A stretch of DNA of 13,069 nt from the IMG/VR virus record IMGVR_UViG_2778261166_000004. One strand, written 5' to 3'. Below are positions 1 through 13,069 of the stretch, in pieces. Below the pieces are notes generated by a model. That model worked only from the letters and a program-made list of their open reading frames with translations. It was not told where the DNA came from and did not search any database. Position 1 is the first letter of the stretch, and each line of letters begins with the position of its first letter. A program made the position numbers and the translations under genes. Origin of the DNA: a virus (lineage: Duplodnaviria > Heunggongvirae > Uroviricota > Caudoviricetes).

Positions 1-1260
1 ATGAAGCTCAACGCCAGACAGGTCGAGACCGCAAAGCCAAAAGACAAAACCTACAAAATGGCCGATGGTGGTGGTTTGTATCTTGAGGTTTCGGCCAAAG
101 GTTCCAAATACTGGCGCATGAAATACAGACGTCCCTCTGACAAAAAAGAGGATCGTCTCGCTTTTGGTGTTTGGCCTACTGTGACGCTTGCTCAGGCAAG
201 AGCAAAACGCGATGAAGCTAAAAAGCTTTTAGTACAGGGCATAGACCCAAAAGTCGTACAAAAAGAAGCTCAGGCCGAGAATTCGGGGGCATATACTTTT
301 GAAACTATCGCCCGAGAATGGCATGCCAGTAACAAGCGCTGGAGTGAAGACCATCGAGCGCGCGTTCTTCGCTATCTTGAGCTTTATATCTTCCCTCATA
401 TCGGTTCGTCCGACATTCGGCAGCTTAAAACCAGCCACCTGTTAGCCCCGATTAAAAAAGTTGATGCCAGTGGCAAACACGATGTCGCTCAGCGCCTGCA
501 ACAGCGCGTCACAGCCATTATGCGTTATGCCGTACAGAACGATTACATCGACTCAAATCCAGCCAGCGATATGGCTGGTGCACTATCGACAACCAAAGCG
601 CGCCATTATCCTGCTTTACCTTCTAGCCGGTTCCCTGAGTTTCTTGCACGTCTTGCTGCATATCGTGGTCGCGTAATGACGCGGATTGCGGTTGAGCTTT
701 CCTTACTAACTTTTGTGCGTTCCAGTGAGTTACGTTTCGCGCGTTGGGATGAGTTTGATTTCGATAAATCTCTCTGGCGAGTACCTGCAAAACGAGAAGA
801 AATTAAAGGAGTGCGTTATTCGTACCGTGGCATGAAGATGAAAGAAGAGCATATCGTTCCGCTTAGTCGGCAAGCGATGATTTTGCTAAACCAGTTAAAG
901 CAGATTAGTGGTGATAAAGAACTGCTTTTTCCGGGGGATCATGACGCAACTAAGGTTATGAGTGAAAATACAGTAAATAGCGCATTGCGTGCGATGGGCT
1001 ATGACACGAAAACCGAAGTTTGCGGGCACGGGTTTAGAACGATGGCGCGTGGAGCATTAGGGGAATCAGGCTTATGGAGTGATGATGCGATTGAACGTCA
1101 GCTAAGTCACTCAGAACGTAATAATGTACGTGCTGCTTATATTCATACATCTGAGCATTTAGACGAAAGGCGTTTAATGATACAGTGGTGGGCAGATTAT
1201 TTAGATAGAAATAAGAAAGAAAGTATTACACCATATGATTTTGCTAGACAACTTAAATAG
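1..1260 (+). CDS. int: P4-type tyrosine integrase (site-specific recombinase)
   Basis: 419-aa ORF. The N-terminus carries the P4-integrase arm-binding signature (MKLNARQVETAKPKDKTYKMADGGGLYLEV...KYWRMKYR). The C-terminal catalytic region has HGFRTMARG (His-x-x-Arg) and a downstream Tyr in AAYIHTSEHL. It sits at the edge of the element next to the presumed tRNA attachment site outside the window. Confidence 0.92.
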   Translation: MKLNARQVETAKPKDKTYKMADGGGLYLEVSAKGSKYWRMKYRRPSDKKEDRLAFGVWPTVTLAQARAKRDEAKKLLVQGIDPKVVQKEAQAENSGAYTFETIAREWHASNKRWSEDHRARVLRYLELYIFPHIGSSDIRQLKTSHLLAPIKKVDASGKHDVAQRLQQRVTAIMRYAVQNDYIDSNPASDMAGALSTTKARHYPALPSSRFPEFLARLAAYRGRVMTRIAVELSLLTFVRSSELRFARWDEFDFDKSLWRVPAKREEIKGVRYSYRGMKMKEEHIVPLSRQAMILLNQLKQISGDKELLFPGDHDATKVMSENTVNSALRAMGYDTKTEVCGHGFRTMARGALGESGLWSDDAIERQLSHSERNNVRAAYIHTSEHLDERRLMIQWWADYLDRNKKESITPYDFARQLK

Positions 1261-1266
1261 TATTTT

Positions 1267-1304
1267 AACCTAGCCAGAATTTTTGTAGTCTCGCTGGCTA
1301 GGTT
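1267..1304. terminator. Perfect 11-bp inverted repeat (aacctagccag / ctggctaggtt) between convergent int and cassette genes; probable bidirectional terminator
   Basis: Seen directly: stem 1267-1277 pairs with 1294-1304 around a 16-nt loop, flanked by A/T-rich sequence. It lies in the 54-nt gap between the int stop (1260) and the minus-strand gene end (1315). Confidence 0.5.
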
Positions 1305-1314
1305 AATTTAAAAG

Positions 1315-1899
1315 CTAATCATTCACATCAAGAGTTAAGAGTGCGTGCATTCTTTTAACAATCATAATGATATTCAAAATTAAATGTACGCAAACATATA
1401 TTATGAGTGGGCATAAAAAATAGTATAACACATTTAATTTTAGAGTTGTGTTTATTATGCTGACATAATATTCATGTGTTTTGCCGTAAAAGAATCCTGA
1501 TTGATTGACAGGAAACAGTGATACTATAAAACACAACACGACTAACAAAACTCCACATAAAATTGAATAACAAATGTTATAATAAAGTTCAGTGAGTAAT
1601 GCTTTCTTTGATTCATAGAATGTATCAATATCTTTTCTTTGTCTTATTTTTGATTCTTGATCATATACTAAAACAAGAACGCTAAGCAGTAATGCTGTTA
1701 GTATTGCACTGAAATTAACTAATAATGATATTAAATCTTTTGTTATACCACTTCCTAGGAGTGAGAATGCGGCAGAAATAATAAATGGTAGTATTATGAA
1801 TGTAAATATATCCCATAAACTGATCTTATTAGTGTCAGCATTTTTTAAAGTTCTGAAGTGGCCTATAAGAACTTCGCATATATTTATCTTTGAACTCAT
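1315..1899 (-). CDS. Small integral membrane protein (four predicted transmembrane helices); candidate effector of the cargo cassette
   Basis: 194-aa ORF with four long hydrophobic stretches (approx. residues 27-49, 56-79, 106-128, 155-181) separated by short charged loops. Its ATG overlaps the stop of the upstream gene (TAATG) and AGGAG lies 9 nt upstream, indicating translational coupling. The DNA is strongly AT-rich compared with the P4 backbone. Confidence 0.75.
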   Translation of the reverse strand: MSSKINICEVLIGHFRTLKNADTNKISLWDIFTFIILPFIISAAFSLLGSGITKDLISLLVNFSAILTALLLSVLVLVYDQESKIRQRKDIDTFYESKKALLTELYYNICYSILCGVLLVVLCFIVSLFPVNQSGFFYGKTHEYYVSIINTTLKLNVLYYFLCPLIIYVCVHLILNIIMIVKRMHALLTLDVND

Positions 1900-2825
1900 T
1901 ACGCTCTCCTTATAGTAACACCACGATATAACAACTGTATATATTCCATGATAATAACATCAACAAAATTATTTAGTGATGCTATTTCCGGCATGCCATC
2001 ATAAAAAACAACTTGTTCTTCATCAAATAAAATTTCACATACAGCTCCCCTTGCTGTTGTTCCAATATGAAAAGTTCTTTTTCTGCCATTATCTAATTCA
2101 ACAACTGTTTTTACTGTTTCTCCATATTCTTTAAGGACTTCAACGAGTTGATATTGCTCCGAGCCTCTGGAGAAATAGTCTCGAAGTCTTCCAAGTCCTG
2201 CATTTCGAGGCGGTTTGATAATTAATTCTTGCTCGTTATGGCCTAGCTTTTTGGCTTGTTCAGCTACATCTGTAATGCCATGGAATTTAGTTACCTTGAT
2301 TTCTTTGGTAATGGCATCCATCCATTTTTCAATCGCTTTATCATACGCCAGAGGGTTCATTTGAATCACTAAGTTGGTAACCCTCTTGAAATAATCTGAA
2401 AACAATCTCATAAAAAGAGTTTTTATACCATCACCTCTATATGTATGTAAAAACGCCATGCCTTCATTTACATCTCTAGGAATATAAAAATGTATGTAAT
2501 ATCTAATTATTTCAGCATTGTTTTTTGTCTTTTCGAAGTCTACATCGCCAGTTTTAATGTTTATTATGTCGGTCTTTGTTCCGTAATATCCAGACTCGAA
2601 CCATCCATATATTTCTCGATTGTTGTTATCGCGTGTAATCTCATTAAAACGAAAAACTTGTTTGGTTTCTTCAGAAAGGATATATTCTTCATTATACTGC
2701 TTAATAAATTCATCGAGTATATCAAGTAAATCATGTTCTCTGATGTTACTCAGTGCTGAATAACGTTGTTCTTTGGCTGCGTTCGGATTGTAGCAGCGGA
2801 AAAGATACGGTGCTAAAGCGTGCAT
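1899..2825 (-). CDS. Hypothetical soluble protein (308 aa), first gene of the cargo cassette; candidate sensor/regulator partner of the membrane protein
   Basis: Uninterrupted 308-codon ORF with a strong RBS (GGAGA, 6-nt spacer) before the ATG at 2825. The product is Lys/Glu/Tyr/Asn-rich with no hydrophobic segments. I see no Walker A, HNH, PD-(D/E)xK or nucleotidyltransferase GS...DxD motif. It is AT-rich and co-oriented with, and overlapping, the downstream membrane gene. Confidence 0.75.
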   Translation of the reverse strand: MHALAPYLFRCYNPNAAKEQRYSALSNIREHDLLDILDEFIKQYNEEYILSEETKQVFRFNEITRDNNNREIYGWFESGYYGTKTDIINIKTGDVDFEKTKNNAEIIRYYIHFYIPRDVNEGMAFLHTYRGDGIKTLFMRLFSDYFKRVTNLVIQMNPLAYDKAIEKWMDAITKEIKVTKFHGITDVAEQAKKLGHNEQELIIKPPRNAGLGRLRDYFSRGSEQYQLVEVLKEYGETVKTVVELDNGRKRTFHIGTTARGAVCEILFDEEQVVFYDGMPEIASLNNFVDVIIMEYIQLLYRGVTIRRA

Positions 2826-2900
2826 TGTTATCTCCTTTTTTAATGGAGATTAGCAACTTATCACTATAAGATCAACGAACGTTCAATATGGAAAGGGATA
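2826..2900 (-). promoter_or_regulatory. Putative promoter region of the cargo operon
   Basis: AT-rich 5' region just upstream of the operon RBS. On the minus strand there is a TTGAAC ... TGATAA/TATAGT arrangement, but the spacing is not canonical. The call rests mainly on position. Confidence 0.3.
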
Positions 2901-3059
2901 ATTCTGCTTGGTATTTTTCTTTTAATAATATTGGGGTGCTTTAGTGCGATATTTTGATGATTAGTGTGTGTTCGGCAGTAGAAGCTATCCATAGGCAGTG
3001 ATGTTTCTGCATATAGAATGTTTTAATTATCAAACACATAATTTTCGATTGCGCGCGCA

Positions 3060-3078
3060 GTGCTTTCCCCGCCTCGCC
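3060..3078 (-). other. cos site: 19-nt P2/P4 cohesive-end sequence (GGCGAGGCGGGGAAAGCAC on the minus strand)
   Basis: The plus strand reads gtgctttccccgcctcgcc, the exact reverse complement of the recalled P2/P4 cohesive-end sequence. It lies between psu and the cargo cassette, where cos sits in P4. A GC-rich hairpin follows at about 3079-3100. Confidence 0.85.
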
Positions 3079-3185
3079 CGCCCGCTTTGCGGGGCGGTTT
3101 TAATGCAGTTGCACTGACACGCTCAGGCCGTGCCGGGAATGGCGCGGTATACAGAAAATGAGGCAGGAAAACGCATGCAAAGCCA

Positions 3186-3216
3186 TGCACCTTATCGATG
3201 CATGGCTTTTTTCAGT
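3186..3216 (-). terminator. Hairpin downstream of psu (gccatgca...tgcatggc) with flanking T/A runs; possible late-operon terminator
   Basis: 8-bp inverted repeat around a 9-nt loop, 30-60 nt beyond the psu stop. It is followed by a T-run on the plus strand and by TTTGCATGCGTTTT on the minus strand. Orientation is ambiguous. Confidence 0.4.
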
Positions 3217-3242
3217 AAAAACAGGCGGATTTTCGGGGAATT

Positions 3243-3815
3243 TTACACAGACTGACGTGATGCCAGTTGCGCACTTTTACGCGAAAAAATCATGTTCTGC
3301 GCAGGAGTGAATTTTTCACGGCTGTCATCCACCGAAGCCGCGTCAGGCCTGAATCCGATGGTCGTTAAAATGTCGCTATCCTGTGCGGAATAATTAATTT
3401 TTTCCCCCTTCGCAAGCCAGGACAGAAGGGCTTCACGCAGGGCATCTGTGGCACGCTGTATGGCACAGTTTCGGGCAATGGCCGTCAGCTCACTGTAGCC
3501 CATCAGCTCCGGTGCCAGTGCCGCCGCCAGTGCTGTGCCGTGCTGCTGCATAAAATCATTCAGCCGGTCGCGGATGCTGATGTGCTGAACGGCTTCATGC
3601 GAACGAATATAACGACCGGCGGCCTGATTCACCTGCCATTTTCTGACTTCGATAATATTGCGTAATTCGTCCAGGCGACTGACGTTTCTGCCTTCTCCTG
3701 ACAGAAGCCGCAGGTATTCCTGTTCGGCCGCTGCCAGCTCATTTTTGCGTTGCAGCCATGCTGCTTTGTTATTCTGACAGGTGTCAAAGGCCTGCTGTAA
3801 GGCTGTGCTTTCCAT
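3243..3815 (-). CDS. psu: Psu (polarity suppression / capsid decoration protein, Rho antagonist)
   Basis: 190-aa ORF, the length of P4 Psu, last in the sid-delta-psu order next to cos. The N-terminal sequence MESTALQQAFDTCQNNKAAW matches my recollection of P4 Psu. Not verified by alignment. Confidence 0.88.
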   Translation of the reverse strand: MESTALQQAFDTCQNNKAAWLQRKNELAAAEQEYLRLLSGEGRNVSRLDELRNIIEVRKWQVNQAAGRYIRSHEAVQHISIRDRLNDFMQQHGTALAAALAPELMGYSELTAIARNCAIQRATDALREALLSWLAKGEKINYSAQDSDILTTIGFRPDAASVDDSREKFTPAQNMIFSRKSAQLASRQSV

Positions 3816-3888
3816 CGTTATCTCTTTCTCATCATGCTGAAGAATAAAAATACGGTGTGCGGCGACGGCCGGTGTTAACCGGCAGCCC

Positions 3889-4389
3889 TCATTCCAGACG
3901 CAGCGAATATGATTGTGTTTTTAAGCGTACTGGCGGCAGTTCCTGTTTTTCATGCAGGCTTTCTGCCAGTTCGTCCGGCGTGACCGGGCGGACAATGAAA
4001 CGGTTGATGGTCTGAAGCGTTTTAAACACCAGACCACAGCCCGGATCCGTGCACACATAAAAACGCTCGGTGACTTCCTGAGACAGACGCCTCGATGTTC
4101 TTGACAGTGCAAGGCCTTTACATCTCCGACAACAATATCCGGTAACAAGCATTCTTTTCGGGCGTTTCATACTGCCGGAGGCTGACGTCAGTGAATCGCG
4201 GTATCTCTGTTTGCCTGAAATGTATTCCATTCCTGAATCTTTACTGTCAGAGAAAAAGCTTTCACTCGCTTCAAATGTCGCAGAGCAATAAATATTCCGG
4301 CACTGTGCAATCATTATCTTGGTGCCATCGTCCATGAAATGTGCGCGGCGGGTGTGAGCAACATGTCCACACGACGGGCAGTAAATCAT
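3889..4389 (-). CDS. delta: Delta (Ogr-family zinc-finger late transcription activator, duplicated Ogr-like domains)
   Basis: 166-aa ORF, the length of P4 Delta. It has two Ogr-like Cys4 units (CPSCGHVAH...CRNIYCSATF and CCRRCKG...CTDPGCGLVF). Its ATG overlaps the sid stop (ATGA), and it lies between sid and psu. Confidence 0.9.
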   Translation of the reverse strand: MIYCPSCGHVAHTRRAHFMDDGTKIMIAQCRNIYCSATFEASESFFSDSKDSGMEYISGKQRYRDSLTSASGSMKRPKRMLVTGYCCRRCKGLALSRTSRRLSQEVTERFYVCTDPGCGLVFKTLQTINRFIVRPVTPDELAESLHEKQELPPVRLKTQSYSLRLE

Positions 4390-5120
4390 GACAGCAGTCC
4401 TCTGGCCTTAAGCTCTGCACCCTGCTGGTCTATTTTGTCCTGCCACACCTTGCGCTGTGCCGGTGTGCCTGCCACCTCATAATCCATGTGCGGGAGTGTT
4501 GCCGCTGACAGTCCGGTCAGCCGGAGAACCGGCTCGCCGGTGAGGCTGATTTGCATCTGTTTAATTTTCTGTTCCAGCGATGATTTCACCTGCTGCATGA
4601 CAGCCTTATCGGGTGCGACGTAGCCCTGATGGCCGGTGGTGTTGGCGAGCGGATTTTCCTGTACCAGGATACTCAGATGCATTGCCCGGACAAGCGCCTC
4701 ACAGGTTTCATTCAGGGCGTGTTCCAGCTCATGCTCTGCATACAGACTCAGAAGGTGATGATGTGCCTTCCGGTAGGCGGTGGCCGTGCTGTCACACGCC
4801 CCTTTCAGGCGTTCACGTTCGAAATTCAGCACCACGGCCAGATTGTCATATTCCTGTACCAGCTCCCGGCGTGCCACGCGCTCAATGTGGCGCTGTTTCA
4901 GCTCGTCGCTCAGGACACCACCGGCTGCACGAAAGGCCGTGCGCCAGTCGTCAGCGTCGTTTCCGTCGGCCTGCGCCAGCGCATTTTTTTCCTGCTCTGC
5001 CCGTTCAATGGCCGTGACGGTCTCATCCATCAGGCGGGCGTTCTCAAGATGGGCGGCTCTGGCCTTTTCCAGTTGTGCCAGCGCGGGTTGCAGATATTCA
5101 GGGATGGTGTTGTCAGACAT
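4386..5120 (-). CDS. sid: Sid (external scaffold / capsid size determination protein)
   Basis: The ORF track gives 250 aa from a GTG at 5138. The ATG at 5120 has a strong RBS (GAGGAG, 7-nt spacer) and gives 244 aa, the P4 Sid length, starting MSDNTIPEY. It is the first gene of the late operon. Confidence 0.88.
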   Translation of the reverse strand: MSDNTIPEYLQPALAQLEKARAAHLENARLMDETVTAIERAEQEKNALAQADGNDADDWRTAFRAAGGVLSDELKQRHIERVARRELVQEYDNLAVVLNFERERLKGACDSTATAYRKAHHHLLSLYAEHELEHALNETCEALVRAMHLSILVQENPLANTTGHQGYVAPDKAVMQQVKSSLEQKIKQMQISLTGEPVLRLTGLSAATLPHMDYEVAGTPAQRKVWQDKIDQQGAELKARGLLS

Positions 5121-5146
5121 TTTCCGGCTCCTCGTCACTTCAGGTT

Positions 5147-5210
5147 AAGAAAATTGTGACGTACACCGGACAACAACACGACGCATTGCAGATGTGCCAG
5201 CCCTGACACA
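5147..5210 (-). promoter_or_regulatory. Psid-type late promoter with two TGT-N12-ACA Delta/Ogr binding dyads
   Basis: Seen: TGT-N12-ACA at 5193-5210 and again at 5155-5172. If transcription starts near 5147 (27-nt leader to sid), these are centred near -55 and -18. That matches the recalled arrangement of P4 late promoters, which have a second Delta site near -18. Confidence 0.55.
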
Positions 5211-5289
5211 GGAGACTCATCCTCAGACCGGCAAGCCAGGAAAAGGTCGCAGGAAAAACCGGCTTACTGTTTGTTTTTTTATATTTTAC

Positions 5290-5393
5290 TGTTCACCTCT
5301 GTTCACCATAAGAAAAAAGATAAGTAATACAGTAATTTAAAGGGTGAACAATCGCAGTAATGACTGTTCACCGTCTGTTCACCACTGTTCACC
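5290..5393. repeat. ori-like cluster of type I iterons (octamer TGTTCACC, six copies in both orientations)
   Basis: Seen: TGTTCACC at ~5290, 5300, 5365, 5376, 5386 and inverted GGTGAACA at ~5343, followed by an AT-rich tract (5400-5480). It lies between the divergent late promoters, ~4.8 kb from the second iteron cluster, consistent with P4 ori versus crr. Confidence 0.7.
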
Positions 5394-5551
5394 CGTTCAT
5401 GGACTTTTTGTGCTGTTTATTACTTTTTATTTTTATTAATTAACTGAAATAAATAAGAAAAAACAATTTGTATTTCACTATAATTTTTTCCAGCTCCTTC
5501 CAGAGCGTTTTAAAGCTATCTGGCGCTGATGTACAAAAAATACACAGTCAT

Positions 5552-5620
5552 TGTAAGGCTGCCGGAACAAATCCCCCCTGTTGCGTCTGCTGAAAATATT
5601 CACAAAATAAAGCGCTACCC
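5552..5620 (+). promoter_or_regulatory. PLL-type late leftward-operon promoter (single TGT-N12-ACA Delta dyad) upstream of vis
   Basis: TGT-N12-ACA seen at about 5551-5569 (tgtaaggctgccggaaca). This predicts a start near 5614, ~58 nt before the vis ATG and ~400 nt upstream of the sigma70-like promoter at 5974-6003, matching the recalled PLL-PLE spacing in P4. The -10 is weak, as expected for an activator-dependent promoter. Confidence 0.45.
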
Positions 5621-5671
5621 GAAGCCGGACGGACTTATCCGGTGCTGTATGGACATTAACGAGGTAGCCCG

Positions 5672-5938
5672 ATGCAAGCTGTTTTTTCTTCCCCGTCTCC
5701 CGCCCCTGTGACGCCACTGATGCCGCTGCCGGACATCACGCAGGAGCGTTTTTTACGTCTGCCGGAAGTGATGCACCTGTGCGGCCTGTCACGCTCGACC
5801 ATCTACGAACTCATCCGTAAGGGGGAATTTCCGCCGCAGGTGAGTCTTGGCGGTAAAAATGTGGCCTGGCTGCACTCTGAAGTCACCGCATGGATGGCCG
5901 GACGCATTGCCGGACGCAAACGGGGGTACGACGCATGA
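5672..5938 (+). CDS. vis: Vis (AlpA-family helix-turn-helix regulator / excision directionality factor)
   Basis: 88-aa ORF with the AlpA-type HTH signature ([27 protein letters not shown]). It is the first gene after the PLL-like promoter. GAGG lies ~7 nt upstream of the ATG. Confidence 0.8.
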
Positions 5939-5973
5939 TGATGCCCGCTCTGCAAAAACTCCCTTTTTCTGGC

Positions 5974-6003
5974 TTGCCTTTTTCCGGCATTTGCGGATAT
6001 AGT
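5974..6003 (+). promoter_or_regulatory. Sigma70-like promoter (PLE-like early promoter): TTGCCT, 18-nt spacer, TATAGT
   Basis: Seen directly at 5974-5979 and 5998-6003. It lies just downstream of vis and ~400 nt downstream of the PLL-like site. Confidence 0.5.
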
Positions 6004-6066
6004 TTTTCCGCTGCCGCAAAATCGGCAGCCGGGCGTGAGAACCCGAGCAATTCACAGGCGACATAT

Positions 6067-6088
6067 GACGCGCCACGCGTCTTTTTTT
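6067..6088 (+). terminator. Intrinsic terminator (gacgcg-cca-cgcgtc followed by T7) ~60-80 nt downstream of the early promoter
   Basis: Seen: 6-bp GC-rich stem, 3-nt loop, then seven T residues. A second hairpin (gctgccg / cggcagc, 6010-6029) lies between promoter and terminator. The geometry suggests a short attenuated transcript or small RNA, as in the P4 immunity region. Confidence 0.6.
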
Positions 6089-6336
6089 GTGTCGCAATCA
6101 ATGCCACAGAGCGCCAGATTATGGTGTGGTGTGTGGTCAGTCGTGCAGATGGCATTCCGTGCATCCTGCCTGCGTCCGCTCATTATGCCGCAGAGTCAAT
6201 GGTAGCTCAGGCGGGGCAGCCTCCGGGCTGGCCGGTATCCTGTGAAGCCGGTATTCTCACCCCCGTCTGGGCTATCGCCATCGAGCGTGAGAACTCCGGC
6301 GATAGCGTTATTTGCTATTCACAGGAGGCTGCCATC

Positions 6337-6534
6337 ATGGCTACAACCCTTACCCCCTCACACCCTGAATTTGTCTTTGTGTTTGCGGCTGTCCGTCGCG
6401 CAGACCGTCATCCCCGTATCTGTATGCTTCGCACCGTCGCCGGTGATGAACGCAGTGCCCGCCGTTCCCTTGTCCGTGACTATGTGCTCTCCCTTGCTGC
6501 CCGTCTGCCGGTGGTGGAGGTGTCCCGTGCGTAA
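6337..6534 (+). CDS. Hypothetical small protein (65 aa) nested in a longer open frame (5935/6121/6199..6534)
   Basis: ATG at 6337 is preceded by AGGAGG with an 8-nt spacer. The product ([65 protein letters not shown]) looks protein-like. The same frame stays open upstream to 5890/5935 (199 aa from the ATG at 5935), but that part spans the promoter and terminator above and is Cys/Trp/Pro-rich. The true start is uncertain. Confidence 0.45.
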
Positions 6535-6814
6535 TAAAAAAGCCCCTCAGACCGTCTCAGCGCGTCATGACGCCCGTGAACACCTCAGCATTGAGGCTTA
6601 CCATAAGCTCAACCGCGCCAGCGCCGTATCCCAGTTTGTTGGGGGTGATTTGATTCACCGTGAACTCTCCGGCCTGCATCAGCTCTACATTCCGCATATT
6701 TTCAGCTACCTGAATGAAGATATTGATTTTGTGCTGAATGAACTGAAAGCCAAAGGCCTGTGCCGCGATTTTCTCGCCCAGCAGAAAGACCGGGGAGACA
6801 GGACGCATGTTTGA
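6527..6814 (+). CDS. epsilon: Epsilon (helper-prophage derepression protein)
   Basis: A GTG start at 6527 with GGAGG 9 nt upstream gives exactly 95 aa, the P4 Epsilon length. The in-frame upstream extension to 6242 is low-complexity Pro/Ser/Leu-rich and looks non-coding. The stop overlaps the start of orf151. Confidence 0.75.
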
Positions 6815-7262
6815 TTTTCCCCAGCCCGGTGAGATTTACCGTTCTGCCGGTTTTCCCGATGTGGCCGTGGTCGGCATTCTGGAAGACGGTATTCCGTGGG
6901 AAATGCCGTACCGCTGCCCGGACATTGTCTGGAACCCGTACCGCCGTAAATTCAGTATCCTTGTGCGTATCCTCGCTGACGGGCGCACCACAGACATCCC
7001 GCTGGGGCGTTTTCTGCGGGAATTTACCTGTGACCGTCCTGACCTGTTTAAACGCAGCCCCGTAAACCGGCATGCGGTACTGAAAGAAATGGCCGGAGAC
7101 CCGGAATTACAGAAATGGCGGGAGAAATATCTGGATATTTACCCGCAGGACCCTGTTCCGGTCAGCCGGGCGGCACCGGTGGCGCGGGAATGGCGGGAAA
7201 TCCCCCGCACGGAGCCTGACCCGGAAATCACACCGGATAACAGTTACCGCAATTATCTGTAA
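6807..7262 (+). CDS. P4 orf151-like protein (function unknown)
   Basis: 151-aa ORF in the conserved position between epsilon and alpha. Its start overlaps the epsilon stop (ATGTTTGA). Confidence 0.75.
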   Translation: MFDFPQPGEIYRSAGFPDVAVVGILEDGIPWEMPYRCPDIVWNPYRRKFSILVRILADGRTTDIPLGRFLREFTCDRPDLFKRSPVNRHAVLKEMAGDPELQKWREKYLDIYPQDPVPVSRAAPVAREWREIPRTEPDPEITPDNSYRNYL

Positions 7263-7397
7263 TTAAAAAACGACACCCGAAAAATTAAATGTGCGTATTC
7301 GCGCAGGGATACGCACGTCTTCAGGAGACGCAGATATGCCTTATCAGTTAATGCAACCGGCACGGAATGCAGTCATCTGTCACAGGGAGGAAAACAA

Positions 7398-7718
7398 ATG
7401 AAAACACCCTTACCGCCCGTCTTACGCGCAGCCCTTTACCGTCGCGCTGTCGCCTGTGCCTGGCTGACCGTGTGCGAACGTCAGCACCGCTACCCGCATC
7501 TCACCCTTGAATCACTGGAGGCGGCCATCGCCGCTGAGCTGGAAGGCTTTTATCTGCGCCAGCACGGTGAGGAAAAAGGGCGCCAGATAGCCTGTGCCCT
7601 GCTGGAAGATTTAATGGAATCCGGCCCCCTGAAGGCCGCGCCGTCGCTGTCCTTTCTCGGGCTGGTTGTGATGGATGAACTCTGTGCCCGTCACATAAAA
7701 GCGCCGGTACTGCACTGA
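7398..7718 (+). CDS. P4 orf106-like protein (function unknown)
   Basis: 106-aa ORF immediately upstream of alpha, with GGAGG 8 nt before the ATG. Confidence 0.75.
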
Positions 7719-7732
7719 AGGAGAACAACACC

Positions 7733-10066
7733 ATGAAAATGAACGTAACCGCCACCGTCAGCCATGCGCTCGGCCACTGGCCGCGTATTCTCCCGGCGCT
7801 GGGGATTCAGGTGCTGAAAAACCGTCATCAGCCCTGTCCGGTCTGTGGCGGGAGTGACCGCTTCCGTTTTGATGACAGGGAGGGGCGCGGCACCTGGTAC
7901 TGCAATCAGTGTGGTGCCGGTGACGGCCTGAAACTGGTTGAAAAGGTGTTTGGTGTTTCCCCGTCCGACGCGGCCACAAAGGTGGCTGCCGTGACCGGCA
8001 GCCTGCCCCCGACTGACCCGGCAGTGACGGCTGCCGCCGGTGCTGAAACAGACGCTGCCCGGAAGAACGCCGCCGCACTGGCACAAACCCTGATGGCGAA
8101 AACCCGTCCCGGAACCGGTAACGCCTACCTGACCCGCAAGGGCTTTCCCGGCCGGGAATGCCGGATGCTGACCGGCACACACAGAGCCGGTGGCGTGAGC
8201 TGGCGTGCCGGTGACCTTGTGGTGCCACTGTATGACGACAGCGGCGAACTGGTTAACCTTCAGTTAATCAGTGCTGACGGCCGTAAGCGCACCCTGAAAG
8301 GCGGGCAGGTCAGGGGCACCTGTCACATCCTTGAAGGACAGAATCAGGCCGGAAAACGTCTGTGGATAGCGGAGGGATACGCGACCGCACTTACCGTGCA
8401 TCACCTGACCGGTGAAACGGTGATGGTGGCGCTTTCTTCCGTGAACCTCCTTTCTCTGGCCAGCCTTGCCCGACAGAAGTATCCGGCCTGTCAGATTGTC
8501 CTTGCCGCAGACCGTGACCTCAGCGGTGACGGCCAGACAAAAGCCGCCGCAGCCGCAGATGCGTGTGAGGGCGTTGTTGCCCTGCCGCCGGTCTTCGGTG
8601 ACTGGAATGATGCCTTCACGCAGTACGGCGGGGAGGCCACCCGTAAGGCCATTTACGATGCCATCCGGCCACCGGCTGAAAGCCCGTTCGACACCATGAG
8701 CGAAGCAGAGTTTTCCGCCATGAGTACCAGCGAAAAGGCCATGCGTATCTATGAGCATTACGGCGAGGCGCTCGCGGTCGATGCCAACGGCCAGCTTCTG
8801 TCCCGCTATGAAAATGGTGTCTGGAAGGTACTGCCACCACAGGACTTTGCCCGGGATGTGGCCGGGCTGTTTCAGCGTCTGCGCGCGCCGTTCTCCTCCG
8901 GGAAAGTGGCCTCCGTGGTGGACACCCTGAAGCTGATTATTCCGCAGCAGGAAGCCCCCTCCCGCCGCCTGATTGGCTTTCGTAACGGCGTGCTCGACAC
9001 GCAGAACGGCACGTTCCACCCGCACAGTCCGTCACACTGGATGCGTACCCTGTGCGATGTGGATTTCACCCCGCCGGTGGACGGTGAAACGCTGGAGACC
9101 CACGCCCCCGCGTTCTGGCGCTGGCTTGACCGTGCCGCCGGTGGCCGTGCGGAAAAACGCGACGTGATTCTGGCTGCACTGTTTATGGTGCTGGCAAACC
9201 GCTACGACTGGCAGCTCTTTCTGGAGGTGACCGGTCCCGGCGGCAGCGGCAAAAGTATCATGGCCGAAATAGCCACCCTGCTGGCCGGGGAGGATAACGC
9301 CACGTCGGCCACCATTGAGACGCTGGAATCCCCGCGTGAACGTGCCGCGTTAACTGGCTTCTCACTGATACGCCTGCCGGACCAGGAAAAATGGAGCGGC
9401 GACGGAGCCGGACTCAAGGCCATCACCGGCGGCGATGCGGTGTCCGTTGACCCGAAATACCGGGATGCGTACTCCACGCACATCCCGGCGGTGATTCTGG
9501 CCGTGAACAATAACCCGATGCGCTTCACCGACCGCAGCGGCGGCGTGTCACGCCGGCGGGTGATTATTCACTTCCCGGAACAGATAGCCCCGCAGGAGCG
9601 CGACCCGCAGCTTAAGGACAAAATCACCCGCGAGCTGGCGGTCATCGTGCGTCACCTGATGCAGAAGTTCAGCGACCCGATGCTCGCCCGGTCACTGCTT
9701 CAGTCCCAGCAGAACTCAGACGAGGCGCTGAACATCAAACGGGATGCCGACCCGACGTTTGATTTTATCGGCTATCTGGAAACCCTGCCGCAGACCAGCG
9801 GCATGTATATGGGGAACGCCAGTATCATCCCGCGCAATTACCGTAAATACCTCTATCACGCCTATCTGGCCTACATGGAGGCAAACGGCTACCGGAATGT
9901 ACTCAGTCTGAAAATGTTCGGGCTGGGGCTGCCGGTGATGCTGAAGGAATACGGACTGAATTACGAGAAGCGCCATACCAAACAGGGGATACAGACCAAC
10001 CTGACGCTGAAAGAGGAAAGCTACGGCGACTGGCTGCCAAAATGTGAAGACCCTGCAACAACCTGA
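7733..10066 (+). CDS. alpha: Alpha: bifunctional primase-helicase and origin-binding replication protein
   Basis: 777-aa ORF, the P4 Alpha length. It has an N-terminal zinc-binding primase motif (CPVCGGSDRFRFDD...WYCNQCG), a TOPRIM-like acidic region (LAADRD), and a Walker A P-loop (GPGGSGKS) in the helicase domain. RBS AGGAG. Iteron clusters flank the operon. Confidence 0.95.
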   Translation: MKMNVTATVSHALGHWPRILPALGIQVLKNRHQPCPVCGGSDRFRFDDREGRGTWYCNQCGAGDGLKLVEKVFGVSPSDAATKVAAVTGSLPPTDPAVTAAAGAETDAARKNAAALAQTLMAKTRPGTGNAYLTRKGFPGRECRMLTGTHRAGGVSWRAGDLVVPLYDDSGELVNLQLISADGRKRTLKGGQVRGTCHILEGQNQAGKRLWIAEGYATALTVHHLTGETVMVALSSVNLLSLASLARQKYPACQIVLAADRDLSGDGQTKAAAAADACEGVVALPPVFGDWNDAFTQYGGEATRKAIYDAIRPPAESPFDTMSEAEFSAMSTSEKAMRIYEHYGEALAVDANGQLLSRYENGVWKVLPPQDFARDVAGLFQRLRAPFSSGKVASVVDTLKLIIPQQEAPSRRLIGFRNGVLDTQNGTFHPHSPSHWMRTLCDVDFTPPVDGETLETHAPAFWRWLDRAAGGRAEKRDVILAALFMVLANRYDWQLFLEVTGPGGSGKSIMAEIATLLAGEDNATSATIETLESPRERAALTGFSLIRLPDQEKWSGDGAGLKAITGGDAVSVDPKYRDAYSTHIPAVILAVNNNPMRFTDRSGGVSRRRVIIHFPEQIAPQERDPQLKDKITRELAVIVRHLMQKFSDPMLARSLLQSQQNSDEALNIKRDADPTFDFIGYLETLPQTSGMYMGNASIIPRNYRKYLYHAYLAYMEANGYRNVLSLKMFGLGLPVMLKEYGLNYEKRHTKQGIQTNLTLKEESYGDWLPKCEDPATT

Positions 10067-10081
10067 CCCTCATGACTCATC

Positions 10082-10107
10082 TGACCGGCATCTGCCGGTC
10101 TTTTTTT
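10082..10107 (+). terminator. Intrinsic terminator after alpha (tgaccggca-tc-tgccggtc followed by T7)
   Basis: Seen: GC-rich stem and T7 run beginning 16 nt after the alpha stop. Confidence 0.7.
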
Positions 10108-10125
10108 ATCCCTGAATTCCCCGAA

Positions 10126-10398
10126 GGTGAACAATCCACTGTTCACCCTTCACCGTATATTCACCTGTTATCACACTGAAATTAAAAGAGAAAAACGAAA
10201 GGTGAACAGTGTGAACAATCAAATCAAAAAAAACTTTTTTCTCCCTGTGTGATTTTCAGTACGGGGGATTAATCACCGGTATGAGTCACACCGGCAGAAT
10301 GCCGGAGGTGAAGAATCGAATGTTCACCCTTCACCCATTATTCACCACCTATCATACTGAAATAAAAGGAGAAAAAAGAAAGGTGAACAGTGTGAACA
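10126..10398. repeat. crr-like cis replication region: two ~77-bp direct repeats (about 10140-10216 and 10321-10398), each carrying TGTTCACC / GGTGAACA iterons
   Basis: Seen: the two copies align nearly base for base (tgttcacccttcacc...ttcacc...ctgaaat...gaaaggtgaacagtgtgaaca). An additional inverted iteron is at 10126-10133. The region is AT-rich and lies downstream of alpha. Confidence 0.7.
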
Positions 10399-10610
10399 GT
10401 TCTTTCGAAAAAAAAATTTTTATGTGGATAAAAGATGCACTGGTTTGGATCCGGGCTACGGATCCAAACTTACTGATTAAAAATTATTTAACTTTCCGAT
10501 TTATTGATGGGCTGAAAATAGATTGGTCAGAAAAACAGTGGGGGCACAAAAGGGGGCATATTTCATTGTTGTGTTTTATTATTTGTTTTTTATCATTAAC
10601 TTATTTTAAT

Positions 10611-10632
10611 GTTTGAGTCCGGCCTTCGCACC
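10611..10632 (+). other. Putative attR core: tRNA 3'-end-like sequence (gtttgagtccggccttcgcacc)
   Basis: It resembles the T-arm/acceptor end of a tRNA (GGTTCGAGTCCGGCCTTCGGCACCA-like, as recalled for tRNA-Leu leuX, the classical P4 attachment site). P4-family elements integrate into tRNA 3' ends and leave a partial copy at the far junction. Similarity is judged by eye. Confidence 0.4.
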
Positions 10633-10662
10633 TTCGCACCTTCGCACCTTCGCACCTTCGCA
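10623..10662 (+). repeat. Tandem octamer array (ccttcgca x5 perfect, plus a degenerate sixth copy to 10670)
   Basis: Seen directly. The unit is the distal end of the tRNA-like att core. Confidence 0.85.
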
Positions 10663-10866
10663 CCATCGGAACATCAATAGACATCAACGGACGTTTTTTT
10701 ATGACTGAAATCCGCGCCACACAAGGCTTTTCGCTATTTTTCGCTCAACCTAAGTCAACCTACATCAACTTACTGATGTGGATACAGCTACAGCTGCGGC
10801 TATATCCCGATTCGATAATGTTTGTACCCACACAAAACCCTTGAAAGGCTACAAGGCTGAAATTGT

Positions 10867-11052
10867 CTAAACCATAGAGATGATTTTTATGATCCAGTCT
10901 TTCTCTTGTTGAGATAGTTCCAGTTTGCTCACTCGTGTTAAGAAGGTATTGATCACCTGAACATCCGAATTGGTGAGCCTATTTAATAGAGCGGGTGGTA
11001 TACCTTTACTAACAATCGCTTTGCGGTGACTTTCGTAGTTTTTATTACTCAT
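10867..11052 (-). CDS. Hypothetical small protein (61 aa)
   Basis: ORF with GAGGA 8 nt upstream of the ATG. No family recognised. It lies outside the satellite, between attR and the HNH gene. Confidence 0.35.
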   Translation of the reverse strand: MSNKNYESHRKAIVSKGIPPALLNRLTNSDVQVINTFLTRVSKLELSQQEKDWIIKIISMV

Positions 11053-11108
11053 TGTTGATCCTCAAAAATCATTGTATGGCGGCATTGATCGTTTCCAGCA
11101 ACCTTTAC

Positions 11109-11351
11109 TTACTCACTTCGAACTGCATCCTCGTAGACTGTTCCACTACAATAATCGAAAAGGCGCGGATGTCCATTCAGGTATCCCGCTAATACGTATA
11201 GCAATAACAATGGCTTATGCGGCGCGCGCTGTTCACCCTTGTGCCAGATTTTTATATTGGCAATTGCCTGCTGTAGCGATTTACTGGAAGCCATTGATAT
11301 CCCTGGCAGTGAAATAATTGCGATCATGCTCGCAAATTTTCTGCTGTTCAA
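11109..11351 (-). CDS. Hypothetical small ORF (80 aa from TTG; 61-72 aa from internal ATGs); possibly a gene remnant
   Basis: The ORF-track start is TTG. Internal ATGs lack a convincing RBS. It is in a different frame from the adjacent 61-aa ORF, so the two could be a frameshifted remnant of one gene. Confidence 0.2.
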   Translation of the reverse strand: MNSRKFASMIAIISLPGISMASSKSLQQAIANIKIWHKGEQRAPHKPLLLLYVLAGYLNGHPRLFDYCSGTVYEDAVRSE

Positions 11352-11430
11352 GCCTGCAAGTGAAGATATATTACCTTGATCTCATTTGTTTTTTTGCTGC
11401 CTGTTCTGAGAACGTATAAGGACATTCTCC

Positions 11431-12081
11431 ATGAATAAACTCCCTGATCATCTTCCGCGGCGGTATATCATCGAAGCTATCCATTTATGGGATGCGGGAG
11501 AAACTCATCAGTTCCAGCCTGCGCGGTTGTATGAGATTGAATATCATGGCCGACGTTACCCCTCGAAGGCGATTGCTGGCATCGCAGCGACATTGATGAC
11601 GGGGACGCAATTTACCCCTGCGGATTTCACCGGCGGAATAAAATCTAAATGTGTCAAGCTACTCATAGAGCAGGGATTTCATATTCATCTGGATAAAGCC
11701 GCTGCGGCTCCCATAGCCGACGTTCTGTTCCCGGATGAGTTGCCGTCGCAGGAGACATACCTTGAAGGTGCGGCGATAAAGGTGACAGTAAACCGCTATG
11801 AACGCGATAAAAAGGCCCGAGATAAAGCGGTCGAACATCATGGATGCCAGTGCAACGTATGCGGTGTTGATCTGGTGAAGATCTATGGTGATATCGCTGA
11901 AGGCTTTATCCATGTGCATCACCTGGTGCCGCTGTCAGCCATTAAAGAGGATTACCAGCTGGATCCAGTTAATGATTTGCTGCCTGTGTACCCTAATTGC
12001 CATGCGATGTTGCACCGACGCAAACCACCGTTTACGCCGGAGCAGTTAAAAGCGCTGATGGATGCGAATAAATCAAATTAA
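11431..12081 (+). CDS. HNH endonuclease family protein with an uncharacterised N-terminal domain (possible McrA-like modification-dependent restriction nuclease)
   Basis: 216-aa ORF. The C-terminus has an HNH-type motif set (CQCNVCG...HVHHLVPLS...N...YPNCHAMLH). The N-terminal ~100 aa is unrecognised. Confidence 0.7.
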   Translation: MNKLPDHLPRRYIIEAIHLWDAGETHQFQPARLYEIEYHGRRYPSKAIAGIAATLMTGTQFTPADFTGGIKSKCVKLLIEQGFHIHLDKAAAAPIADVLFPDELPSQETYLEGAAIKVTVNRYERDKKARDKAVEHHGCQCNVCGVDLVKIYGDIAEGFIHVHHLVPLSAIKEDYQLDPVNDLLPVYPNCHAMLHRRKPPFTPEQLKALMDANKSN

Positions 12082-12088
12082 TGAACGC

Positions 12089-13069
12089 TCACCTTTCGCG
12101 CCAAAACTGCAAAATTGCTTCTACAAACTTGTCAGAAATAATCCCCCGACGGGCTGCCGTGCTGAAATGACTGCTTCGCAGTGCCGTCGTCCAGTTCTCC
12201 GGTGACCGGTACGCTGAACCGTAATATCCCGTGCTTAAATCGTCCGGGTCTTCATCAGGCGCGTTCGTCAGTCCTCTTTCACCTTGTTGCTGGAAGTCGA
12301 CGAAAATAATATTGGCTAAAACATTATTTTGATAATTGCCATAAATAACTTCATACGCATGAGGGAAATTTTCTTTCCAGTACCAGGTGGTATCGCCGCA
12401 AAACCACGGTGCGTCAGTAATATTATTAAGCTGAGAATGGTATTGTTTTAGATCCCTACGAAAGGCTTCAACCATATGATTAAAGTGTTGAGGGTGTGAC
12501 GCGTAGTCACTGGTCATTAAGTCAAATTCGCCTTGCATCCAGCATACGCCGAGGAATTTGTTATGCGGATTTTTTGCCAGTGCGGCTCGCGTTCTGCTGA
12601 CTAAATCCTGGTATAGCGGAGTATCCGTTCCCCAACGACAAGCATCATGGCTGGCTCCGTGCCGTTCTGAATATGTCCCTTCGCTGCCCGCGGTAAAAGC
12701 CGATCCGCCACGGCAACACGGAACGATGAGAACCCCTGCATTATCAGGAATAAAGGGCAGTAATTTCCGTGCTATATGCAGTGCCTGGCCAACGGTGCCG
12801 TACTGTGTTTGATGATTCGTTGCCAGAGGATGGTGATAACCCTGCATATCCTGAACATCGTGTGGGCAGTGAGTCAGTGGAATAATGTCGTTAAAGTGAC
12901 ATGACGGGCCTCCGGGATGCGTATGCGCAAATCTCGCTAATTGTTTAATTCTGGGATGAGGCGCATCTTCCCTGTCCGGTAATGGCAGTCCTTCGCCATA
13001 CGCCATGGCATTAGACTGACCAGCAACGGTAAGAATATAGTAATAATCAGGCGATATTATTGCGTTCAT
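12089..13069 (-). CDS. nanS: Sialate O-acetylesterase (NanS/YjhS-like, SASA/SGNH-type)
   Basis: 326-aa ORF whose start is at the window edge. It has a GQSN motif near the N-terminus (TVAGQSNAMAYG), typical of sialate O-acetylesterases. Length and sequence match my recollection of E. coli YjhS/NanS, which lies near the leuX/fim region. Confidence 0.7.
   Translation of the reverse strand: MNAIISPDYYYILTVAGQSNAMAYGEGLPLPDREDAPHPRIKQLARFAHTHPGGPSCHFNDIIPLTHCPHDVQDMQGYHHPLATNHQTQYGTVGQALHIARKLLPFIPDNAGVLIVPCCRGGSAFTAGSEGTYSERHGASHDACRWGTDTPLYQDLVSRTRAALAKNPHNKFLGVCWMQGEFDLMTSDYASHPQHFNHMVEAFRRDLKQYHSQLNNITDAPWFCGDTTWYWKENFPHAYEVIYGNYQNNVLANIIFVDFQQQGERGLTNAPDEDPDDLSTGYYGSAYRSPENWTTALRSSHFSTAARRGIISDKFVEAILQFWRER

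Follow-up and report, generated by a model that had tools for sequence, protein, structure and literature searches.

A P4-type satellite prophage at leuX whose two-gene cargo may be a Rex-like defence system

Results

A satellite colinear with P4

The stretch analysed here, a 13,069-bp DNA from IMG/VR record IMGVR_UViG_2778261166_000004 (the window), very probably contains at positions 1-10632 a genetically intact P4-type ('Type A') phage satellite, integrated as a prophage at the tRNA-Leu gene leuX and carrying two cargo genes that are foreign to P4. Satellite phage P4 was the sole long match of the window in a megablast search against phage records. By blastn, positions 3079-10632 align to P4 (NC_001609) 11624-4079 at 97.8% identity over 7,556 columns, with indels that are all short and non-coding, and by pairwise blastn positions 1-1207 align without gaps to P4 3914-2708 at 94.0% identity. 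The two blocks are colinear and lie in reverse orientation relative to NC_001609. The stretch between them, 1208-3078, is without P4 counterpart and stands for P4 1-2707; neither the P4 alignment nor the projection of the P4 coding sequences finds homologues of gop, beta or cII in the window.

The order of the element, namely int, accessory slot, cos, psu-delta-sid, ori, vis, immunity region, epsilon, orf151, cnr, alpha, crr and attR, is that of integrated P4. The distance from int to alpha is 10,066 bp, and near-identical relatives measure 10,780-10,782 bp from core to core, about 0.8 kb less than P4 (NC_001609/X51522; 11,624 bp); the P4-like family has a median size of 10 kb (PMC8628076). 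All seven genes of the Type A core set (int, psu, delta, sid, alpA/vis, epsilon and alpha), as defined by Moura de Sousa and Rocha 2021 (PMC8628076; SatelliteFinder), are co-localised and full length; six are identified by their Pfam domains and the seventh, sid, by its product being 99% identical to that of P4. Positions 1-10632, in which the open reading frame list and Pfam account for all reading frames, lack capsid, tail, terminase and lysis genes, and the element is therefore helper-dependent, in line with an earlier sequence-only reading of this DNA.

Core genes

Each annotated P4 coding sequence was projected onto the window via exact alignment to NC_001609, giving the following genes (aa, amino acids).

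1-1260, plus strand: int, P4-type tyrosine integrase of 419 aa with Arm-DNA-bind_3, Phage_int_M and Phage_integrase domains (Pfam)
3243-3815, minus strand: psu, capsid decoration and Rho inhibition; 1 aa difference from P4; Psu domain (1e-88)
3889-4389, minus strand: delta, activator of helper late genes; 3 aa differences; Ogr_Delta domain
4386-5120, minus strand: sid, capsid size determination; 244 aa, 2 differences from P4
5672-5938, plus strand: vis, AlpA-type excisionase/regulator; 1 aa difference; Phage_AlpA domain
6527-6814, plus strand: epsilon, helper derepression; 1 aa difference; Derepression family (8e-51)
6807-7262, plus strand: orf151; 2 aa differences from P4
7398-7718, plus strand: cnr/orf106, copy-number control; identical to P4 (0 aa differences); DUF5375
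7733-10066, plus strand: alpha, primase-helicase and origin binding; 777 aa, 12 substitutions; Zn ribbon, Toprim, D5_N, DUF5906 and Pox_D5 domains

The eight genes from psu to alpha keep the length, start and stop of their P4 counterparts, have no internal stops and differ from them by 0-12 aa. Int differs from P4 Int at six positions up to about residue 402, past the region of the catalytic tyrosine, and the C-terminal tail beyond this residue is the sole part that is replaced; the int gene is 100% identical to that of two other carriers of the same cargo (L003 and L045). Over the core genes, the codon differences from P4 comprise 119 synonymous and 28 nonsynonymous changes, which indicates purifying selection and therefore not a decaying remnant. 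Thus the claims of the sequence-only reading that the P4 core functions are intact, that the named genes are free of frameshifts and that the element is no decayed remnant are borne out by exact alignment, in which all genes are full length and no inactivating mutation is seen.

The delta changes C72G/G73S were considered as damage to the zinc finger and rejected: they fall at a linker position, all eight zinc-finger cysteines are kept, and GS is found in every natural relative. At these two codons (window 4171-4176) P4 reads CG and all natural relatives read GS; similarly, the window differs from P4 by a GC to CG swap at 6009-6010 in the target region of the CI RNA. Both look like idiosyncrasies of the 1980s P4 reference, possibly old sequencing compressions, and not like real differences.

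Cis-acting sites

The sites on which packaging, replication, immunity and recombination depend in P4 are found at the corresponding positions.

3053-3120: cos packaging site, the complete 68-bp block common to P2 and P4, its left side being the exact P2 version
5290-5393: ori, six type-1 iterons, which are bound by alpha in P4; six of six exact
10121-10421: crr, two 120-bp repeats with 1 and 4 mismatches, containing ten type-1 iterons, ten of ten exact
10083-10107, plus strand: alpha terminator, 25 of 25 positions identical to P4
283-294: Int arm-type binding repeat inside int (P4 3621-3632), 12 of 12 identical
10538-10561: two Int arm-type sites of the P' arm, 24 of 24 identical
6195-6282, plus strand: CI immunity RNA (Rfam C4 family, 74.9 bits), 100% identical to P4
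5997-6087, plus strand: target site of the immunity RNA (seqA; Rfam c4-a1b1 and isrK), differing from P4 by the GC to CG swap only
5440-5530 (approximate coordinates): diverged patch over the three 'type-2' ori repeats of P4, upstream of vis

The 19-nucleotide cohesive end, GGCGAGGCGGGGAAAGCAC when written as the reverse complement, occupies 3060-3078 and matches P4 at 19 of 19 positions. Across ori and crr all 16 type-1 iterons are exact, as are all three Int arm sites that are visible in the window. Because the immunity RNA is identical to that of P4, the immunity type should match P4 as well. There is no substitution relative to P4 directly upstream of sid or directly downstream of vis, the stretches of the Psid and PLE promoters, respectively. 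Together with the genes, these sites cover the integration, replication, helper-manipulation and packaging parts named in the sequence-only reading (int, vis, alpha, ori, crr, epsilon, delta, sid, psu and cos), all of which are present.

The patch at 5440-5530 is the sole strongly diverged one in the backbone. It was considered as a lesion and rejected, as it is a common natural allele: the allele of the window occurs at 95% identity or more in 367 complete E. coli genomes, and the P4-type allele occurs in about 596. Natural P4-like elements have two sharply distinct forms of this patch, and the form present might vary together with delta or with the binding of an activator to the late promoter.

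In total, the element resembles P4 in gene order, core genes, cos, ori, crr, CI RNA immunity and the P' arm of the attachment site, at 94-99% nucleotide identity. It differs from P4 in that the gop-beta-cII region and the last ~37 int codons are swapped for 1.85 kb of low-GC DNA, in the patch over the type-2 ori repeats, and in being integrated with a degenerate attR.

The cargo cassette

The segment that replaces the P4 genes has a GC content of 32.5% compared with 54.8% for the backbone, and the sequence-only reading had correctly taken it as non-P4 cargo.

1208-3059: replacement segment without similarity to P4, in place of the P4 int tail, cII, beta and gop
1899-2825, minus strand: cargo gene 1, 308-aa soluble protein with a good Shine-Dalgarno sequence; proposed sensor
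1315-1899, minus strand: cargo gene 2, 194-aa membrane protein with four hydrophobic segments (hydropathy); proposed RexB-like effector
1265-1306: hairpin with a 13-bp stem, located where int and the cargo genes converge (-20.3 and -18.9 kcal/mol; z -4.0 and -4.8)

Both cargo genes run in the same direction as sid-delta-psu, and since the start of gene 2 overlaps the stop of gene 1 (TAATG) the two are translationally coupled. The hairpin probably acts as a bidirectional terminator, although it has no clear T-run. In AlphaFold2 (AF2) models, the 194-aa protein forms four long helices (28-48, 54-87, 95-127 and 157-192) with a predicted local distance difference test (pLDDT) score of 82.5, and the 308-aa protein is modelled confidently, with a pLDDT of 83.5 and a predicted template modelling (pTM) score of 0.80.

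Neither cargo protein matches a family in Pfam, NCBIfam or PADLOC, and in PHROGs they match only two families of unknown function, that of the 194-aa protein being phrog_15250. An exhaustive search with the 308-aa family found at least 1,339 clusters (50% identity) at E<=1e-3. In a word-indexed search the four-transmembrane (4-TM) family gave 308 clusters and its soluble partner 89; further sensors may thus serve as partners of the membrane effector.

A defence hotspot and the exchange of its contents

Among 5,426 complete E. coli genomes, seven carry the cassette, always in this slot. In other E. coli genomes the same slot, on near-identical backbones, holds gop-beta-cII, Kiwa, HNH, GmrSD, a death-on-curing toxin or other annotated genes, and the same backbone with different cargo, for which the sequence-only reading had suggested a search, is thus found at the same locus. 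The slot is the P4 hotspot described by Rousset et al. 2022 (PMC9122126), and the architecture and hotspot position are identical to those of P4-like satellites in which defence genes vary at a hotspot between psu/cos and int (PMC9122126, PMC8628076, PMC13586616). The satellite, P4-like with a swappable defence slot beside cos, is therefore of a well-documented kind and adds nothing new itself.

The cassette is listed as 'hypothetical + hypothetical' in Table S1A of Rousset et al. (WP_061358077 or WP_000543069, plus WP_000095574; PMC9122126). Beyond that locus list, it did not appear in the portion of the supplementary-table text that was searched, and a full-text literature search found no paper discussing it. 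It is also unlike the new systems Crouga, Bandua, Aernus, Toga, Reve and Hailong as far as these are named in the main text of a 2026 study in Nucleic Acids Research (PMC13586616). According to that study, six of eight randomly chosen unknown cargos at the P4 hotspot protected against phage.

Comparison of the window with carriers L003, L045 and L046 shows that the int and cargo block (1-3052) is 99.8-100% identical among carriers, i.e. 0-4 mismatches in 3 kb, and that the remaining backbone is just 93.6-98.7% identical; the vis-to-cnr segment of the window resembles reference P4 more closely than it does the other carriers. A near-identical block on diverged backbones implies that the block has been exchanged between backbones, and it appears that cargo and int change places as one piece, the breakpoints lying at cos and close to attL. 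This gives a clean example of the exchange of a hotspot module.

Outside these carriers the gene pair is found at 46-87% protein identity in the following elements.

Salmonella, P4-like element (L009): psu-int slot
Pectobacterium, P4-like element at ssrA (L018): delta-int slot
Rahnella victoriana, P2-like prophage (L019 9001-10508): cos-proximal gpA-portal hotspot, 76% identity, beside an AAA_13 gene
Morganella, satellite-like element (L020)
Pseudomonas, prophage (L012): beside an integrase
Shewanella, small integrative element (L013)
V. cholerae (L011 8001-9498): adjacent to rtxA, where a filamentous prophage with Phage_GPA and Zot genes ends; proteins of 321 and 182 aa

Horizontal spread of the cargo, which the sequence-only reading had held plausible, is directly shown by an int and cargo block of 99.8-100% identity on backbones 1.3-6% apart, and the pair is also present in satellites and prophages across genera. 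Given its presence in the Rahnella P2-like prophage, the family is found in the hotspots of both helpers and satellites; according to the conclusion of the 2026 survey, defences do not pass between P4 and P2 (PMC13586616). The V. cholerae pair could belong to the cargo of an inovirus or to that of an element integrated at dif.

Attachment sites and mobility

The two ends of the element differ in what the window shows of them. At the right end the following are found.

10615-10632: attR core, GAGTCCGGCCTTCG-CACC, whose first 14 nucleotides are the P4/leuX core, followed by a 1-nucleotide deletion (one G gone) relative to the 20-bp P4 core
10623-10668: host-side 8-bp variable-number tandem repeat (VNTR) of a fossil leuX 3' end, CCTTCGCA x 5.8

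The attR core runs into the (TTCGCACC)n array, the copy number of which differs among strains. An identical fossil end closes other leuX islands (L006) and a prophage, and the junction sequence is also present in L008, L045, L046 and L048; in L048, an unrelated prophage has at its right end a longer piece of the leuX 3' end, into which the VNTR sequence passes on its left side. As the VNTR is host-side, variable and closes other islands, it is a displaced, decayed leuX 3' end. In carrier H2 (L003), which has a second island after the satellite, attR is a perfect 20-bp core. The simplest history of attR is that an intervening island was lost site-specifically and that the P4 arm was then joined to the fossil core. 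A search for an empty leuX site joined to the VNTR returned, as full-length matches, occupied sites (L047) or the right end of another prophage (L048).

Several observations weigh against an element that is intact and mobilisable. The window starts at the ATG of int, so that the ~184 bp to its left (P4 3915-4097), with the attL core, the promoter of int and three arm-type sites, fall outside it; the deletion in attR leaves 14 bp of unbroken identity to attL, counted from the T-loop side; alpha T82, T94, I199 and E772 and delta R144S are substitutions private to the window; and no helper phage is visible within the 13 kb. On the first point, the description of the element as complete stands for everything within the window and not for these parts on its left. 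In relatives L003, L045 and L046, attL and its arm are intact, and the element lies 163 bp downstream of tRNA-Leu (leuX).

In some carriers decay is beginning, as shown by the insertion of ISEc12 (IS21 family) between cnr and alpha in sister copies (L045 8198-10500, E. coli OkiPb01716; 13E0767; H24); the copy in the window is uninterrupted. The decay in L045 and H24, the imperfect attR core abutting the 8-bp repeat, the perfect attR of carrier H2 with its further downstream island, and the position of attL outside the window would all fit an element that is intact yet effectively immobile, being anchored by a decayed fossil of leuX and retained because its cargo and regulators are of use to the host. 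We consider this improbable: the junction lies exactly at the core, which means that the fossil core has been used in site-specific recombination at least once, and 14 bp identical to attL remain unbroken from the T-loop side; purifying selection acts on all genes for excision, replication and packaging (119 to 28); int and the two P' arm sites within the window are exact; and the near-identical int and cargo block on unlike backbones argues for continuing exchange among active elements. Judged from its genes and sites, the element could therefore be mobilised by a helper, as the sequence-only reading had it. Nevertheless, we do not call it proven mobilisable, mainly because of the imperfect attR.

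Beyond 10632 the host DNA contains an intact HNH-type endonuclease gene (11431-12081, 216 aa) and a nanS-like sialate esterase gene (12089-13069). In the flank 10867-12081, the annotation of relatives places a remnant gene for a phosphorothioated-DNA-binding restriction endonuclease immediately upstream of the HNH gene. With the HNH gene and this remnant beside attR, the leuX site adjoins an apparent old defence locus.

Discussion

Most likely, the satellite is still P4-like in function. By analogy with the established biology of P4, and with genes and cis sites that are essentially P4-identical in the window, we suggest a life cycle in which the CI RNA would silence the element by terminating its own early transcripts. 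In the presence of a P2-like helper, epsilon would derepress the helper and delta would turn on its late genes, Vis and Int would excise the element, and alpha would replicate it from ori and crr. Finally, Sid and Psu would remodel the helper capsids to small size, and the helper terminase would package the ~10.8-kb genome from cos.

For the cargo, the search for remote relatives points to the Rex exclusion system of phage lambda. When a deep profile (A4) of the 308-aa family was compared with the RexA family by hhalign, a colinear match of 155 columns was obtained (cargo 88-248, RexA 68-236; E 6e-4). Its score of 33.3 exceeds that of the reversed control (13.1) and of all 120 shuffles (maximum 27.5 in 60 column shuffles and 29.8 in 60 block shuffles). 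We therefore propose a RexA/RdgC-like fold for the modelled 308-aa protein. The membrane partner, with its four helices, is encoded second, adjacent and translationally coupled, as in rexA-rexB, and the gene pair is kept together in all nine loci examined.

Other results weigh against a Rex-like identity. The hhalign probability of the match is just 29%. The Pfam models for RexA (PF15969) and RexB (PF15968) and the PADLOC RexA and RexB models give no match to the cargo even at E<=10, and the same RexA and RexB models score the lambda proteins at ~9e-110 and ~9e-61, respectively; in view of this lack of sequence-model matches, the cargo is not filed in the lambda RexAB sequence family. A search of PDB sequences with the 308-aa family profile (hmmsearch) found nothing. 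Similarly, Foldseek with the 308-aa model found nothing in the PDB at E<=1e-3, with RexA outside the top 50, and hhalign of the 194-aa membrane family against RexB gave no signal. Moreover, no immunity repressor lies beside the cassette, in contrast to lambda rexAB with its adjacent CI-type protein repressor, and the membrane protein of lambda has 144 aa compared with 194 aa in the cargo. In the remaining comparisons, a shallow alignment (A1) of the 308-aa family gave no significant hhalign match to lambda RexA alone or to the RexA family, and Foldseek against BFVD returned unnamed phage proteins only.

A close parallel is RexABpp of the P. putida prophage P1 (PP_5643/PP_5644; PMC12894663), an experimentally verified system with the same architecture of a soluble protein and a 4-TM protein. 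RexApp reaches an HHpred probability of 98% to RexA as opposed to the hhalign value of 29% for the cargo, and the two systems are likened here by description and not by sequence; an A1 profile search of genome contigs gave 24 loci, none of which is from P. putida. Weighing these data, we put the chance that the two-gene cargo is a Rex-like defence system at about even. Taken together, an intact P4-type satellite with Rex-like cargo is likely the best explanation of the window.

Two other readings of the cargo bear on this estimate. The first holds that it is not an anti-phage abortive-infection system: it could, for example, be an addiction (toxin-antitoxin-like) module by which the element is stabilised, serve the membrane or the stress response, or modulate the lysis-lysogeny switch of the satellite or helper in the manner of RexA. 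We regard this as rather unlikely, given that the cassette occupies the exact hotspot in which most tested cargos are defence systems, that a soluble and a 4-TM protein are strictly co-inherited across very unlike mobile elements, and that this architecture matches the verified RexABpp. The second alternative is a diverged Kiwa-type system. Kiwa consists of the 4-TM protein KwaA and KwaB of ~310 aa. The cargo resembles it in sizes and make-up, a 4-TM protein plus a soluble protein of ~310 aa, and Kiwa occurs at the same P4 hotspot in other strains. However, the order is reversed, kwaA being the first gene in Kiwa and the gene for the soluble protein the first in the cargo, and neither the DUF4868 domain of KwaB nor the KwaA model finds a match in the cargo; a Kiwa-type identity thus seems very improbable.

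On the Rex-like reading of the cargo, the 308-aa protein would sense infection through a DNA or protein-DNA cue and would then activate the four-helix membrane protein of 194 aa, which would damage or depolarise the membrane and in that way abort infection by competing phages. The sensing and killing steps are modelled on lambda RexAB and P. putida RexABpp. Likewise, the defence function that the sequence-only reading assigned to the cargo is drawn by analogy.

By combining these comparisons with the distribution of the gene pair, we tentatively suggest that the cargo represents an unnamed, very widespread RexAB-type abortive-infection family that moves as a two-gene unit among P4-like satellites and the P2-like helpers of these, prophages (filamentous ones included) and small integrative elements. 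The cargo belongs to a large family for which Pfam, NCBIfam and PADLOC have no model, and a cassette catalogued so far only as two hypothetical genes gains a concrete, if provisional, assignment as a RexAB-type sensor and membrane effector. If this assignment is true, the family would account for some of the 27% of P4 hotspots in which no defence genes can be identified and would widen the Rex paradigm; Rex-like exclusion would then be a general currency of competition between phages and not a curiosity of lambda.

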